A stretch of 64,000 nucleotides of DNA, taken from a virus. Below the pieces are notes generated by a model that had not been told where the DNA came from, did not search any database, and was given only the letters and a program-made list of their open reading frames with translations. The stretch covers positions 68,699-132,698 of IMG/VR virus record IMGVR_UViG_3300042453_004434; one strand, given 5' to 3'. The translations under genes and the position numbers were made by a program. This document shows, piece after piece, positions 6,197 through 11,813 of this stretch (the first letter of the stretch is position 1; each line of letters begins with the position of its first letter).

Positions 6197-6696
6197 ATTA
6201 AAGATTTGATAAATTCTTTATCCTTATCTATCCAAAATAAAATCTTATTTAAACTATCAATAGATAGTTGATTATATTTTATTCCTGAAAAATTAAAAAT
6301 ATCCATATATTTGACATCAAGCGTTTCACTATTGGACTTTTTATATTGCTTGAGAAAATAAATTTCTTTTATTTTAGAAGCCGCGATTGTTTTGGCGCAA
6401 TGAATGCATGGGCTATAAACCATGCAAGCATAATACGGTTGACGAGAAGAATATAAAATAGCATTTATTTCAGCATGATTAATCAAATCAGACTTTAATG
6501 GTCTATTTTGAATTATATCATCATGTGGTATTAATTGAGGAGCAAAACCATTGAAACCAGTTGAAACAGTTCGCCAATCTTCATCAAAAAGCACTGTTCC
6601 AACTTGAGTATGTGGATCTTCTGATCTTGATCTAGCAGCTAAGGCTAGATAACAACCATATTCTGATTTAGTTAATCTTGTCTCTGTCAAATTCAT
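6193..6696 (-). CDS. dCMP deaminase
   Basis: RSEDPHTQVG, TGFNG, HAEINA and SPCIHCAK zinc motifs. Confidence 0.9.
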   Translation of the reverse strand: MNLTETRLTKSEYGCYLALAARSRSEDPHTQVGTVLFDEDWRTVSTGFNGFAPQLIPHDDIIQNRPLKSDLINHAEINAILYSSRQPYYACMVYSPCIHCAKTIAASKIKEIYFLKQYKKSNSETLDVKYMDIFNFSGIKYNQLSIDSLNKILFWIDKDKEFIKSLI

Positions 6697-7321
6697 AAAA
6701 CATTAGTTCATCATCACCAGCAGTCCATTTATATGCGTTTCCTTCACAGGTAAATTCTTTTGAAAAAACTTTCCAAGTTTTATAGTCATCCGGTAATTTC
6801 TTTGAAATCCAAGCGCCAGAATCTCTGAATAAACATCTATTGCTTGGTTGAGCAAACATCTGACCATTCTCGCCCCAAAATACATGAGCTAATTTATGGC
6901 CTCCTTGAACTTCTGAATAACCTAAATTATACTCTTCACTATTACACCAGTCAATAGTAAAAATATATTTACCAACAATCTTTTCTTTATTTTTAAGAAT
7001 AATAAAAGCATTACTATTTTTTAAATATTCAAATCTTGTAATGTTAAAATAATAACTATAACAATCCCATAACTGCAACCAATCTAATGGATAGATAGTT
7101 TCAGATTTTATTTTGCTTTTTAGATAATGAATAGGAACTCTTGTGAACTGAGCGCCGTATTCACTCATCACATTGAATAACAAGCATCTTCTTGAAAGAG
7201 AAGTTACAGAAAATATTTCAACTGGTAAATATTCATCTATAGTTCCAGCTTCTTCGTTTTTTAAAAACGATTTATCTAAATAAGCAAATTGTATTGGTAT
7301 ATTCGCTTGAAGATAACTCAT
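6668..7321 (-). CDS. Conserved phage hypothetical protein
   Basis: 217-aa ORF with MSYLQANIP...LQLWDCYSY...YIFTIDW...AQPSNR, a pattern I recall from aquatic phages; function unknown. Confidence 0.7.
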   Translation of the reverse strand: MSYLQANIPIQFAYLDKSFLKNEEAGTIDEYLPVEIFSVTSLSRRCLLFNVMSEYGAQFTRVPIHYLKSKIKSETIYPLDWLQLWDCYSYYFNITRFEYLKNSNAFIILKNKEKIVGKYIFTIDWCNSEEYNLGYSEVQGGHKLAHVFWGENGQMFAQPSNRCLFRDSGAWISKKLPDDYKTWKVFSKEFTCEGNAYKWTAGDDELMFYEFDRDKIN

Positions 7322-7506
7322 TATTCACCTTTTTTAAAGCTATTCTTCAAATCCTTAAGCATGTCGTTAATTTTTTCTAAGCTTTTAACTCTATCTTTAT
7401 AGAGATTTTCTGTTTTTTCTCTCTCATCATCAATCAAAGAAATTAAATTATTAATTTTCTTTAATGTGATTGTGGGTTTTGTTCTTTCGAATTCTGAAAT
7501 ATTCAT
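7321..7506 (-). CDS. Hypothetical coiled-coil protein
   Basis: 61-aa ORF packed between its neighbours. Confidence 0.6.
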   Translation of the reverse strand: MNISEFERTKPTITLKKINNLISLIDDEREKTENLYKDRVKSLEKINDMLKDLKNSFKKGE

Positions 7507-7507
7507 A

Positions 7508-8101
7508 CTATAATTTCTTATATAGAAAGTATTTACGCCATTCTTCTCTTATCTTGGTGGGTTTAGTAGGAAGAACTGGTATTGGCATTGGTACAGATGA
7601 TATAGCTTTATTCTTAACATTCAAGAAAGGATATATATCTTTTTTAATCTGATTGCATTTATGACAAGTTAAAGTAATGTTTTCTAATTCTTTTGTTCCG
7701 CCTTTGCTTTTAGGAAATAGATGTTCGATTGTTAGCTGGCTTTTATCAAATCTCTCATAGCAAATTTGACAAGTATAATCAAAAATCAAACATAATTTTT
7801 GAATATTGAGAGTGCGCGGAGTTCTTTTTCTATTATAGAAAAAACTTTTTTTGATGACTGCAACGGTGGGAATGAACCAAATCTTATCTTTTGAAGTTAA
7901 AAAAGGCTGATCTTCATAGAATGAAAGCCCTTCGTTTCTAAACCATTCAAAATTATTATCTATTATATTTTCTGATGCATCAAAACATTTAATATTATTT
8001 TTAATTAAATGAATGAATGCGGCTCGCCCTGTTAAAAACGAATAGGGTAAAAAAGAATTATCTAATAATAATGTGGTTATCTGATTAGCATAACCTGACA
8101 T
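7508..8101 (-). CDS. HNH endonuclease (McrA-like)
   Basis: CQIC...LTIEHLFPKSKGG...NITLTCHKCNQIK. Confidence 0.9.
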   Translation of the reverse strand: MSGYANQITTLLLDNSFLPYSFLTGRAAFIHLIKNNIKCFDASENIIDNNFEWFRNEGLSFYEDQPFLTSKDKIWFIPTVAVIKKSFFYNRKRTPRTLNIQKLCLIFDYTCQICYERFDKSQLTIEHLFPKSKGGTKELENITLTCHKCNQIKKDIYPFLNVKNKAISSVPMPIPVLPTKPTKIREEWRKYFLYKKL

Positions 8102-8143
8102 AGGTGCAATATATCATGCCTAATGAAAAATGCAAGCTTTTTG

Positions 8144-8746
8144 TTAATTATGTTTAATTATATTATTTAATGTTCCTATATAATTACCGTCTTCCTGTCT
8201 GTGAGCTACTATTTTCGCTTGAAAAACATTGTTTTTACCATCTATAATTTTAACAGTATGTTCAAAATTTCGTTTGCTTGATACTGCTAAATACCAATCG
8301 TTTGCTATATCATTTCTTGTATCTTCATCTAAAATATTAATCCAATTATTATCTTTTAAATCTTTGAAACCTCGATCAGTTAATCTAATAAAAGAATCAT
8401 TTACCCAAGTGAATTTGCCTTGTTTATTTGTTTCAAAAATAGGTTCGCTTCTATTATCAAGCATCCATCTTTGCCTATTTAAAATAGTTGTTGTTAATTC
8501 TGTATTAGATTTGACATCAGATTTTATATTGTTTACTAAATCTTTTAAAGATGTTCCTGAGTTATAAGTTAACTCTTTTTTAATTTCTTTTATTTCTGTT
8601 CCGATACTTTCTACATGATCAGTTAAATTTGTATAAGGCTGTAATTTCTTCATTGCTTTACATATAAAAGCATAAATTAAACCTGTTGATGTTAAAAAAC
8701 TTAATATATCACCAATATGATTTAAAAGAAAATTTAAAATAAACAT
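8144..8746 (-). CDS. Membrane-anchored PAS-domain protein
   Basis: N-terminal hydrophobic helix, coiled coil with ELTYNSGTSLKD, then a PAS-like segment: MLDNRSEPIFETNKQGKFTWVNDSFIRLT...NNWINILDED. Confidence 0.75.
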   Translation of the reverse strand: MFILNFLLNHIGDILSFLTSTGLIYAFICKAMKKLQPYTNLTDHVESIGTEIKEIKKELTYNSGTSLKDLVNNIKSDVKSNTELTTTILNRQRWMLDNRSEPIFETNKQGKFTWVNDSFIRLTDRGFKDLKDNNWINILDEDTRNDIANDWYLAVSSKRNFEHTVKIIDGKNNVFQAKIVAHRQEDGNYIGTLNNIIKHN

Positions 8747-8747
8747 A

Positions 8748-9704
8748 TTAATTATTTTTCCATTTTTGTTCTACTAGTATTTCATTTACAGTATTTTTAT
8801 CAGATTGATCCATATCAATTGATAATTTTGTTAAAAAGTCATTTAAACTAAATTCATCGCCGTCTTTTAGATCTTCTTTTACTTTGAATTCTTGAATGAC
8901 ATCAACTATTTTAGTTAATGTTGTTTTATATTTAACCATATCGTTAGTTTTAACGAGACTGCATAAACTAAAAGCTTGAGGCGTGAGTGTTTTAAATAAA
9001 CTAATTATAAATGAACCTATGATATTAAAAATGGAAAATGCAGCAGCAGCTATCGGATTAGTTGCTGAAGCGATTCTTAAAATTAAAAATATAATTGCAA
9101 ATATAACTATCCAAGTTAATGTTGTAAAAAAGAATTTTTTCAGTCCCCAAAATACAGCATTTAAACCCATAAGACCACTCATCGAATCTAGAGTGGTTTG
9201 TTTTTCGTCTGATTTTTTCGCCACTTCTTTAGATTGTGCGATTAATTTTTCTATTTGAGCGTCGTATTTTTTTTCTAATTCACTTTTTTGTGTTTGAAGC
9301 GCGGTTATTTCTTTATCTTTTTCTATTAGTATTTTTTCTCCTTTAGATCGTTCGTTGTCTATTTCGGAATTTAAATAATCAACTAGTTTGCGAATTCTTT
9401 CACTTTCTTTTAAATTCGGAGCACCGACTATTGCGACTACTCTATCGTTCATTCTGCCTGCTGTTATTACTTCAACAGAAGGATTCTGAACTTGATTTAA
9501 TGAGTAGCCTACTCCGTATGCATAAGCAGCGGTTTGTTTTAACTGTTCATTGGAATTATTTTGAATAGCTTTATCGATATCTAAAGCCTTTTTCTCTTCT
9601 TTTATAATAGCTGTTTGACTGACTGTATTAGCTTTAGTACCGCGAAGTACGGCGCATCCGCTTAAAATAATACAGCTTAAAGCTATATAAAAATACCTAT
9701 GCAC
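8748..9704 (-). CDS. Lipoprotein with coiled coil and C-terminal transmembrane helices (spanin-like architecture)
   Basis: Lipobox IILSG|C at residue 17, a long heptad region (EKDKEITALQTQKSELEKKYDAQIEKL), then two hydrophobic segments. Confidence 0.7.
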   Translation of the reverse strand: MHRYFYIALSCIILSGCAVLRGTKANTVSQTAIIKEEKKALDIDKAIQNNSNEQLKQTAAYAYGVGYSLNQVQNPSVEVITAGRMNDRVVAIVGAPNLKESERIRKLVDYLNSEIDNERSKGEKILIEKDKEITALQTQKSELEKKYDAQIEKLIAQSKEVAKKSDEKQTTLDSMSGLMGLNAVFWGLKKFFFTTLTWIVIFAIIFLILRIASATNPIAAAAFSIFNIIGSFIISLFKTLTPQAFSLCSLVKTNDMVKYKTTLTKIVDVIQEFKVKEDLKDGDEFSLNDFLTKLSIDMDQSDKNTVNEILVEQKWKNN

Positions 9705-9737
9705 ACAAACTTTTACACAAAAAAATAATAAAATAGA

Positions 9738-11027
9738 TTAAATAAATTCTCGATAATTTAGACCACCATATACTACTGAATTAGATGATCCCAATGGAGC
9801 ACAAGCTAATACTAATACATCTCTTAAACCTGTAATAGAAGAACCTAATTTTAATAATGATTTCAACGATTCAGCTGCTGTATCTGTTTTTGCTTGAGCA
9901 TAACCACCAGCTATAACATAACCTCCAGAAATATGAGTTTCATTTGGAGCAATAGCAAATTCTAGAGAAGAATTATTAGCTGTGGTATATGTTAGACCAT
10001 TTATGCCAGATGGGTTTAATATTAATTTCCACTCATAATTATCATTACTTGTTGTAATTAAAGAAACATCAAGTATATCAATTGTTGTTCCAATCCATCC
10101 TGTTTTTAATCGAGTTGCTAAAACGGCATTTACAAAATTTTTGGTTGCAGTAACAGAAATACCACCGGTTGAAACATACCCATTTGCAGCAACTTCTTCT
10201 CTTCCTCCTTCAGAAATTACAGTTGAACAAATACATTCAATAGATGAAGCAACACCATTTCCATTATTTTCTATCTGATATCTTAAAGGCAAATTAGGAG
10301 TTGACATGTATACAGAATCTTTATTATTTGCATTTAAAAATTCATGACAATAATAAGTTACTCCATCTACATTAAATCCTAATCTTACTCTGCCAACACC
10401 TAGCCATTCAAAATCTATAACTAATATTTGAGTTTTAGAAAAATCTAAATCAACTCCGCTAGGTCCATTACCTTGCATTTGATCAATATTCCAATTAGCT
10501 TGAGTCACTGTTGTATCAATAGCTGAACCTGTAACATATGATCGTAATACAAAACTAATAGTTGAACCAGATCTTTGTAAAAATATACCATTTTGATCAT
10601 CAAAGTACCCCATTCTTGTAGTAATTCCTGTTCCACCTCCAGTTCTTTTTAATATGCCAGTCATCATTACAAGCTGTGCTTTACCAGCTTGATAATTAAA
10701 ACGCATAAATGTTTGGCGAGTTCTTTTACCTGCTGTATTAGCACTAACGGATAAAGTTGAAGAAGCTCTATTTATATCGTATGTACTAGTAGTTCCTGAT
10801 CCACTTTCTTGTATATCGTCCCAATAAATTGATTGATTATCAAATATCTGTTTACTATTAAATATCATTTCAGGATTTGATACTCTTTGTCTGCCAAAAG
10901 CATCAATACCTGCTGGGCCGCCAGCAAAATCAAAATTTGTAAAAGGTCGATAAAACTCTCTTGTTTTATCGTAAATAAGAGTACAATTTACGTTTTGAGG
11001 CGCTTGAGTTGCGAATAATTCAGCCAT
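9738..11027 (-). CDS. Putative virion structural protein (beta-rich)
   Basis: DAFGRQRVSNPE...RFNYQAGK...DFEWLGVGRVRLG, a pattern I recall from aquatic phages; Ser/Thr/Gly-rich beta composition. Confidence 0.6.
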   Translation of the reverse strand: MAELFATQAPQNVNCTLIYDKTREFYRPFTNFDFAGGPAGIDAFGRQRVSNPEMIFNSKQIFDNQSIYWDDIQESGSGTTSTYDINRASSTLSVSANTAGKRTRQTFMRFNYQAGKAQLVMMTGILKRTGGGTGITTRMGYFDDQNGIFLQRSGSTISFVLRSYVTGSAIDTTVTQANWNIDQMQGNGPSGVDLDFSKTQILVIDFEWLGVGRVRLGFNVDGVTYYCHEFLNANNKDSVYMSTPNLPLRYQIENNGNGVASSIECICSTVISEGGREEVAANGYVSTGGISVTATKNFVNAVLATRLKTGWIGTTIDILDVSLITTSNDNYEWKLILNPSGINGLTYTTANNSSLEFAIAPNETHISGGYVIAGGYAQAKTDTAAESLKSLLKLGSSITGLRDVLVLACAPLGSSNSVVYGGLNYREFI

Positions 11028-11049
11028 AAATTTATTTACACTTTAAAAT

Positions 11050-11079
11050 AAAAAAAGACAAGAAATTAATCTTGTCTTT
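11050..11079 (-). terminator. Intrinsic terminator
   Basis: AAAGACAAGA-loop-TCTTGTCTTT hairpin with a T-run on the minus strand. Confidence 0.7.
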
Positions 11080-11108
11080 AATTCTTCACGTTTATTATAT
11101 TATTGAAA

Positions 11109-11567
11109 CTAAATTATTCCAGCTTCAGCATATGATATTTGCGCGATTTTATTATCTATCAAAATTTTTCTATTTTTCAGATGTTGAGGCTTAACTAATT
11201 CTTTATTTTCTCCATTGTATGCAACTGCAAAACTATTAGCGATTAACCAATCATTCAAACAGATTTTATTAGAATTATAAACACGGCCTAGAATTCTGCC
11301 AAATTTATCACCGTTATCTTTATCATACAAAGTCTGAATAATTAAATTTTCTTTATCGCTGTTTTTCATAAAATCTTCAACAGCTTTTCGGCTTAAATTT
11401 GCAAAAACTTTTTCTATTTTATCTTTTGATTTGCTTTCTGGAGTATCAAGACCAGATAATCTGATATTTTGATCTCTAAGCACAATGCTAAATCCTAGAT
11501 CTATATCTACAATTATTGTATCACCATCTATTACTTTTTTAAGTCTGGCTTTGTATTCGTAGGGCAT
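11109..11567 (-). CDS. Thermonuclease (staphylococcal nuclease-like)
   Basis: VIDGDTI, IRLSGLDTPE, DKFGRILG. Confidence 0.9.
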   Translation of the reverse strand: MPYEYKARLKKVIDGDTIIVDIDLGFSIVLRDQNIRLSGLDTPESKSKDKIEKVFANLSRKAVEDFMKNSDKENLIIQTLYDKDNGDKFGRILGRVYNSNKICLNDWLIANSFAVAYNGENKELVKPQHLKNRKILIDNKIAQISYAEAGII

Positions 11568-11662
11568 TCTTTATCCTTCTTTTTCCAGTTAATTGAATCG
11601 TAATTATTTTTAAAATCTTTACTGAAACAATTTCTTGGTTTACTTCCTTTTCCTGCGCTCAT
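11531..11662 (-). CDS. Small hypothetical protein (43 aa)
   Basis: Read manually: MSAGKGSKPRNCFSKDFKNNYDSINW..., a small-ORF pattern I recall from phages. Confidence 0.55.
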   Translation of the reverse strand: MSAGKGSKPRNCFSKDFKNNYDSINWKKKDKECPTNTKPDLKK

Positions 11663-11813
11663 TTATATCCTCCATTATTTGTTTTCTTTTATCTTCAGAA
11701 TAGAAAGACCAGTTCGTTATTTCTTGTCTCGTTCTTTGACAAGCATAACAAACATCATTTAATAATTTACAAACTCTTACGCACGGAGTTGATATCTTAG
11801 CAGCAGTGTCCAT
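11640..11813 (-). CDS. DUF1289-family Cys-rich small protein (57 aa)
   Basis: Read manually: STPCVRVCKLLNDVCYACQRTRQEITNW...S..KRKQIM. Confidence 0.7.
   Translation of the reverse strand: MDTAAKISTPCVRVCKLLNDVCYACQRTRQEITNWSFYSEDKRKQIMEDINERRKRK

Follow-up and report, generated by a model that had tools for sequence, protein, structure and literature searches.

What does a phage gain from a PAS domain that is tethered to the membrane by a segment resembling the tiny proteins of lysis cassettes? The question is raised by a 64,000-nucleotide stretch of DNA from an uncultured lake phage (positions 68,699 to 132,698 of IMG/VR record IMGVR_UViG_3300042453_004434; hereafter, the window), in which one gene encodes a 200-residue protein combining a transmembrane (TM) helix, a short signature motif and a PAS domain. 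We find that the PAS fold is real, and profile comparisons indicate that the anchor-plus-motif module is homologous to standalone, single-helix phage proteins of 63-128 residues, whose genes often lie near lysis genes. Our tentative interpretation, which falls somewhat short of probable, is that the protein is a PAS-modulated accessory of lysis timing.

Architecture of the protein

The gene and its parts are as follows (coordinates are those of the window):
8144..8746, (-) strand: gene for the TM-motif-PAS protein, an open reading frame (ORF) of 200 amino acids with an ATG start
8660..8716, (-) strand: codons of the membrane helix, residues 11-29, predicted N-out/C-in (from hydropathy and lysine/arginine counts)
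8540..8575, (-) strand: codons of the signature motif ELTYNSGTSLKD, residues 58-69 (from invariant residues, phrog_9869 and hhalign)
8168..8464, (-) strand: codons of the PAS domain, residues 95-193 (from Pfam PF00989, AlphaFold2 and Foldseek)

Several searches recover the PAS domain. Pfam family PF00989 matches residues 95-193 at 25.4 bits (cutoff 22.6), and the PAS and PAS_9 families match all 21 aligned relatives, with a best expectation (E) value of 2e-9. AlphaFold2 models residues 101-200 at a predicted local distance difference test (pLDDT) score of 88-94, as a five-stranded antiparallel sheet (strands 103-106, 112-115, 161-168, 174-183 and 189-199) with helices between the strands. A Foldseek search of the PDB with this model gave 459 matches at E<=0.001, and the top matches shown were all PAS or LOV domains; a sequence-profile search of the PDB gave none at E<=0.01. 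The LOV subfamily is marked by a conserved flavin-adduct cysteine in the Ealpha helix. Because residues 95-200 of the window protein hold no cysteine, and the alignment of the 21 relatives has neither an invariant or near-invariant cysteine column nor a conserved histidine in the PAS region, a LOV-type or FixL-type (heme) cofactor is not indicated, and we discount sensors of both kinds. The protein stops at residue 200 and thus has no output domain; that no relatives of 351-2000 residues were returned by the indexed search is weak evidence to the same effect.

The N-terminal half has one hydrophobic helix, at residues 11-29 (Kyte-Doolittle, 19-residue window, >=1.6). Since residues 1-11 hold no lysine or arginine and residues 30-45 hold three, the helix is predicted to lie N-out/C-in, from which we infer a single-pass protein of the inner membrane that is cytoplasmic apart from the helix and a few external residues. 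Beyond the helix lies ELTYNSGTSLKD, which is found in only one place when the window is translated in all six frames and whose residues E58, N62, G64, S66, K68 and D69 do not vary across the 21 relatives. In the AlphaFold2 model, built on the alignment of these relatives, helices at 11-61 and 67-97 are interrupted at the NSGTS turn (pLDDT 52-77); because the helices break there, we regard the motif as a helix-turn-helix hinge and not as the middle of one unbroken coiled coil. A search of the ESM Atlas with residues 1-95 returned nothing usable.

These results bear out most of what a sequence-only reading of this gene had described, i.e., a single N-terminal hydrophobic helix followed by a PAS domain with no kinase or other output domain. 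That reading had also placed the motif within a coiled coil: the helical linker that carries the motif is there, but not, in this low-confidence part of the model, as one continuous coiled coil.

Homology of the anchor to small phage proteins

The sequence-only reading had noted a likeness between the motif and a PNGGSSLRD segment of small membrane proteins encoded near phage lysis genes, and this proved accurate. The PHROG family phrog_9869 (98 positions, annotated as of unknown function) matches all 21 relatives (best E 2.9e-6), the match to the window protein spanning profile positions 54-95, and phrog_15431, which is labelled 'holin', matches two of the 21. When 14 N-terminal modules were combined into a profile and compared with 5.8 billion sequences, 34 proteins of 45-174 residues came up at E<=0.01; ten of these small proteins were tested, and phrog_9869 matched all ten, phrog_15431 two, and no Pfam family any of them above its cutoff.

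A second IMG/VR scan gathered 80 loci, comprising 62 with standalone motif proteins (63-128 residues) and 17 further PAS fusions; the locus L078, which has no motif ORF, was left out of all tallies, and L035 duplicates the contig of L003 from the first scan. With hhalign, 33 distinct fusion N-modules align to 55 distinct standalone proteins at a probability of 99.4% (E 1.6e-21) over 62 columns that include the membrane helix, compared with 0.4% and 0.1% for two unrelated small-protein clusters used as controls. Because the loci of the second scan were picked partly by scanning for the motif, the motif columns of this alignment are not independent evidence, although the neighbourhood tallies given below are. 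Single-protein comparisons gave 95.1% for gp52 of Streptomyces phage mu1/6 and 87.9% (E 3.2e-6, 32 columns) for HolA of Actinomyces phage Av-1. By these profile measures, the anchor-plus-motif module is homologous to the standalone proteins, and the N-terminus is, at the level of sequence, lysis-accessory-like.

The resemblance extends to the order of parts. The phrog_9869 and phrog_15431 proteins mu1/6 gp52, Sonali gp22 and TurkishDelight gp37 have, like the window protein, an N-terminal helix, a basic stretch, the hinge and a next helix, and the wider phrog_9869 family has the same sequence of membrane helix, hinge (E-L-x-P-N-x-G-x-S-x-[KR]-D) and following helix. Unlike the window protein, which has 200 residues and adds a PAS domain of about 110, the three named proteins and their like are short (63-160 residues; 60-160 across the phrog_9869 family), lack a PAS domain and are encoded beside an endolysin or holin. 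Av-1 HolA likewise has one membrane helix followed by KPNHGGSSVD; it differs in its length of 101 residues, the lack of a PAS domain, its Gram-positive host and the replacement of the [KR] of the motif.

Genomic setting of the relatives without a PAS domain

In six of the eight annotated actinophages that we inspected, the genes of the small relatives lie in a lysis cassette:
mu1/6 (Streptomyces phage): gene order endolysin-holin-gp52, with the motif ELHPNSGSSLRD
P1312: small motif gene directly 5' of an amidase gene
Sonali (Arthrobacter phage): gp22 directly 5' of endolysin-holin
Mufasa8: small motif gene directly 5' of a metallo-endopeptidase gene
TurkishDelight (Streptomyces phage): gene order endolysin-holin-motif protein (gp37)
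Av-1 (Actinomyces phage): gene order holA-holB-lysA
Wheelbite: endolysin gene 3.4 kb from the motif gene
BIM BV-113 (Glutamicibacter phage): motif gene present in an unannotated genome

The GenBank record of Av-1 describes HolA as having one membrane region and states that it "appears to enhance holin activity of HolB"; HolA is also mentioned in PMC9025707. The pattern recurs in uncultured viruses. In 15 of the 62 standalone IMG/VR loci, a cluster matching a PHROG endolysin family (phrog_21357, E 1.4e-25) lies within four genes of the motif gene, and a second conserved cluster, of 133-176 residues, does so in 26; one or the other was found at 41 of the 62 loci and directly adjoins the motif gene in 15. 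Small two-helix proteins are common around the standalone genes.

The second cluster deserves separate mention. Its members (e.g., L090:5159-5590 (+), and at 25 other loci) are encoded two genes from the motif protein, at a place where one would look for an endolysin. The cluster corresponds to phrog_32486, annotated as of unknown function, with no Pfam match and no sequence match in the PDB, and it is similar to the N-terminal portion of what an unannotated BIM BV-113 gene, lying two genes after the motif protein, encodes. It may represent an undescribed lysin domain, and from the pattern of its histidine and aspartate residues our guess would be a lysin of the peptidase type.

The family of TM-motif-PAS fusions

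The fusion is not peculiar to the window. A word-indexed search returned 28 clusters of proteins of 110-350 residues at 100-45% identity, and an exhaustive phmmer search returned 1325 representative clusters at E<=1e-3 (180 at E<=1e-10), nearly all of about 200 residues. Among the best 150 representatives, 141 have 150-260 residues; 126 of these carry the motif, and 113 have a detected N-terminal helix, which in 107 of the 113 has more lysine and arginine after it than before it. The 130 motifs found among the 150 representatives give the consensus E-[LFV]-x-P-N-G-G-S-S-[LI]-[KR]-D, in which the asparagine, glycine and serine are invariant (130 of 130) and the aspartate nearly so (129 of 130). 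In the 27 phage records that contain a PAS fusion, the fusion is in each case the sole copy of the module. A 73.6-kb IMG/VR contig carries the same PAS gene at 100% identity.

Other searches were blank or were set aside. Neither the window protein nor two other members matched any of 50,697 GenBank phage records, so that by these searches no cultured phage is seen to carry the family, tblastn of the window protein gave three matches at E<=10, i.e., chance level, and four very long phmmer matches align through the PAS domain only. Proteins of Cellulophaga phages, suggested as members by a search of viral folds, were rejected: the family profile reached only 10.7 bits, within a 1154-residue frame of phi19:1, and gave nothing in phi18:3. 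A search for open-access papers describing the motif or a PAS-holin fusion found nothing relevant.

Two representatives, P0046 (385 residues) and P0064 (396 residues), contain the motif-helix-PAS unit twice in tandem after a single membrane helix.

A role in lysis timing and the alternatives

The moment of lysis determines burst size and phage fitness, and it is known to be controlled by holin concentration, by dual-start antiholins and by superinfection signals of the T4 and ICP1 types. The membrane helix, the basic stretch and the E-L-x-P-N-G-G-S-S-L-K-D hinge of the fusion are homologous to the tiny one-helix proteins of lysis cassettes, and the short C-terminal helix of this module is lengthened and then capped with a PAS sensor domain. 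We suggest that such a protein might either enhance a holin or restrain it in the manner of an antiholin. Its self-association, or its contact with a putative phage holin, would be biased by the PAS domain, and the trigger would be a cytoplasmic cue, e.g., a ligand, a redox state or an energy state. A lysis role for the fusion is plausible; any gating by the PAS domain is pure conjecture. The stronger version of this proposal, a lysis clock with a built-in sensor in which the PAS domain reads a redox, energy or metabolite cue and, with the membrane helix and the invariant hinge serving as relay, switches the protein between helping and blocking the holin, is doubtful. If it were true, the physiology of the host would bear directly on when lysis occurs, and thousands of uncultured aquatic phages would time their bursting by the physiological state of the host cell. 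Even if the link to lysis fails, the hinge motif is now defined, a conserved feature that recurs in Av-1 HolA and many other tiny proteins of lysis cassettes and offers a clean handle for their study.

The immediate surroundings of the gene in the window are these:
7508..8101, (-) strand: HNH endonuclease gene (PF14279, 49.5 bits), 42 nucleotides downstream of the PAS gene
8748..9704, (-) strand: gene for a lipoprotein of 318 amino acids, with the lipobox LSGC (Cys17), a long helix, two membrane helices and a 78-residue tail
9738..11027, (-) strand: gene for a virion structural protein of 429 amino acids (phrog_1645, E 1.6e-84), heading the co-oriented run
11054..11079, (-) strand: terminator-like hairpin immediately preceding the structural gene; positions 7400-11700 hold no other

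That the PAS gene belongs to a co-oriented run headed by a virion structural gene is counted in favour of a role in lysis, as is the occurrence of the module once per phage record. Other results, from the neighbourhoods of the fusions and from searches, weigh against one. The neighbours of the fusions vary, as would those of a mobile accessory gene; by Pfam and PHROG they include genes for ribonucleotide reductase, Mom, portal, protease-capsid, tail-spike or other structural proteins, helicase, patatin and HNH or EndoVII nucleases. Family-library scans, which in the window took in 17 of its 66 ORFs of >=100 residues, recognised no endolysin, holin or spanin family beside a fusion in the window or at the 39 related loci, and hidden Markov models of the two clusters that neighbour the standalone genes and of six annotated actinophage lysins gave no match to the 39 loci or to the six-frame window. 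PF01510, PF01464 and PF13539 were absent from the four phage records searched; PF05838, PF08291 and PF00182 were absent from 27, the blanks for PF05838 and PF00182 carrying little weight because these two matched no control genome either. PF00959 was absent from four records and then found in one of 23, in a 748-residue frame of G022 about 16 kb from the PAS gene. Since no endolysin was located in the fusion phages, their linkage to lysis genes can be scored neither way. Several further points tell against the proposal: the anchor homology depends on about 60 residues, the AlphaFold2 confidence is low in the N-terminal half, and no bench result for any member of the motif family was found in open-access text.

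The sequence-only reading had supposed that the gene belongs to a lysis cassette and had made the linkage of its homologues to lysis genes a test of this. The supposition is not supported, as neither endolysin nor holin was recognised beside the gene; the linkage holds for the relatives without a PAS domain but not for the fusions.

The variable neighbourhoods would suit an accessory of host signalling or takeover, in which a membrane-tethered PAS domain pairs with the PAS domain of a host sensor kinase or chemoreceptor, or with signalling enzymes of the phage, and the anchor is a mere tether. Consistent with such a role, HNH endonuclease genes flank the PAS gene (that of the window is kept as downstream neighbour in 11 of 23 loci, i.e., the 22 of the first scan and the window), PAS proteins that turn up otherwise in libraries of viral structures are histidine kinases, and in five of the 22 first-scan loci (L004-L008) the genes for an ankyrin-nucleotide cyclase protein and a 126-residue membrane protein stand directly upstream. 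This explanation is nonetheless unlikely: no host partner has been identified, the cyclase link is confined to one subclade, and a mere tether would explain neither the invariance of the hinge (130 of 130 motifs for N, G and S; 129 for D) nor the lack of a second copy of the module in these phages.

The ankyrin proteins of L004-L008 have 583-594 residues and a C-terminal nucleotide cyclase domain (PF00211, at 25.2 bits with the cutoff at 21.9; e.g., L007:6198-7982 (+)). The 126-residue membrane protein precedes them, and the pair is inserted between the lipoprotein and PAS genes in this one subclade.

A different possibility is suggested by the lipoprotein gene, whose TAA at 8750-8748 is separated by one base from the ATG of the PAS gene at 8746-8744. 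The sequence-only reading had given this 1-nucleotide spacing correctly and had called the lipoprotein spanin-like, a label that describes no more than its topology. The topology is akin to that of a unimolecular spanin but with an extra, second helix: two hydrophobic helices at about residues 190-212 and 217-240 precede the 78-residue tail, and a low-confidence, all-helical model (pLDDT 55.6) places a long helix at residues 98-169. Neither a spanin family nor any other was assigned to it by Pfam or PHROG, and no lysis cassette was recognised around it. The stretch DSMSGxxGLNAVFWGLKKFF is strongly conserved in this protein.

The two genes might form an envelope module unrelated to lysis (e.g., for superinfection exclusion or the control of DNA entry), with the PAS protein as the cytoplasm-facing partner in the inner membrane. 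The tight coupling of the genes, the recurrence of the lipoprotein gene ahead of the PAS gene at 13 of the 22 first-scan loci as well as in the window, and a match of its first 63 residues to Cor superinfection-exclusion lipoproteins (phrog_1119, E 9.2e-4) would all fit, as would a signal-peptide protein with a weak beta-barrel match that follows the PAS gene at nine loci. We nevertheless consider such a module improbable. The Cor match is weak and confined to the signal-peptide region, the gap between the genes widens to 30-115 nucleotides in L009-L011, and the lipoprotein, which is restricted to the closest clade, is missing at nine of the 22 first-scan fusion loci and at 16 of the 17 in the second scan (the seventeenth, L035, being the L003 contig). 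A protein missing from so many fusion loci cannot define the function of the family.

The protein that follows the PAS gene at these nine loci (L007:8625-9329 (+) and eight others) has 234-236 residues and a signal-peptide-like start, and its match to the outer-membrane beta-barrel family PF13505, at 21 bits, is below the cutoff. A phage-borne porin-like gene would be out of the ordinary.

It is very unlikely that the fusion is the phage's sole holin, i.e., a new class of one-helix holin with its own cytoplasmic sensor: although the module is single-copy in all 27 records, the window ORFs scanned gave no other recognisable holin, some standalone relatives bear a RefSeq 'holin' label and LysF1b, a one-helix N-out/C-in protein, can trigger lysis according to PMC13056207, the motif protein is an extra gene in every annotated cassette inspected that has a two-helix holin named by experiment or by position (mu1/6, TurkishDelight, Sonali and Av-1), and the 'holin' labels are positional only.

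Comparison with known lysis regulators and phage sensors

For a PAS-modulated lysis accessory, the closest functional parallel is offered by two mycobacteriophage proteins with a DUF2746 domain, LysF1b and LysA2b. Deletions made by Pollenz et al. (2026) showed that these one-helix, N-out/C-in proteins are needed for efficient and properly timed lysis, and they have a two-helix protein as partner; in D29, the gene for the one-helix regulator lies apart from the other lysis genes, and lysis is also modulated by a lipoprotein (PMC13056207; bioRxiv 10.64898/2026.08.27.747656). Like the window protein, they have an N-terminal helix in this orientation and a charged cytoplasmic tail; unlike it, they have no PAS domain, and no homology between them and the window protein was detected. 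We would call them a good functional analogy for what is proposed here.

Homology to the DUF2746 proteins was considered and rejected: PF10874 (cutoff 23 bits) gave matches below its cutoff in three of 21 members (best E 0.0053) and none in the other 18. The blank of this family in five records at E<=1 and the 1.8% returned by hhalign for D29 gp30 also count against the lysis proposal. D29 gene 30 (L110:22296-22562 (+)) lies among minor tail genes and encodes an 88-residue one-helix protein that is annotated as hypothetical; given this location and the topology, it probably corresponds to the LysA2b described in the 2026 preprint. Its product carries ...SNSHDENLRD..., a loose echo of the motif.

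In T4 lysis inhibition, holin T works with the antiholins RI and RIII, small holin-binding proteins that tune timing to a signal. The window protein differs from both, in that RI senses in the periplasm and has another fold, RIII is soluble and cytoplasmic, and neither has a PAS domain or the motif. Like the holins as a class, it is a small protein with a membrane helix; its 200 residues are large for a holin, yet T4 holin T is of similar size, and the length is within the holin range.

A phage-encoded PAS-domain receptor has a precedent in VqmA of vibriophage VP882 (PMC8284805). In contrast to the window protein, VqmA is a soluble DNA-binding transcription factor with no membrane anchor, and it falls outside the lysis-cassette families.

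Other features of the window

The window has a G+C content of 30%, and the relatives of its structural gene are found in cyanomyophages and HMO-2011. Matches to the T4-type late promoter TATAAATA number 13 in the window, against 17.3 expected, and none precedes the PAS operon. The terminator-like hairpin is a consensus match only, one having been found against 1.1 expected in shuffled sequence. At 11028-11079 (-) the hairpin is followed by TGTAAATAAATTT and then by the ATG of the structural gene, so that a leader is nearly absent.

Other genes of the window encode a DNA polymerase, an ATP-dependent protease, a dCMP deaminase, an SNase and glycosyltransferases. The gene at 6668-7321 (-) encodes a 217-residue protein that matches phrog_3704, labelled 'ferredoxin' (E 4.5e-42), and belongs to no Pfam family; it adjoins the dCMP deaminase gene in the window and in 13 of 22 related loci.

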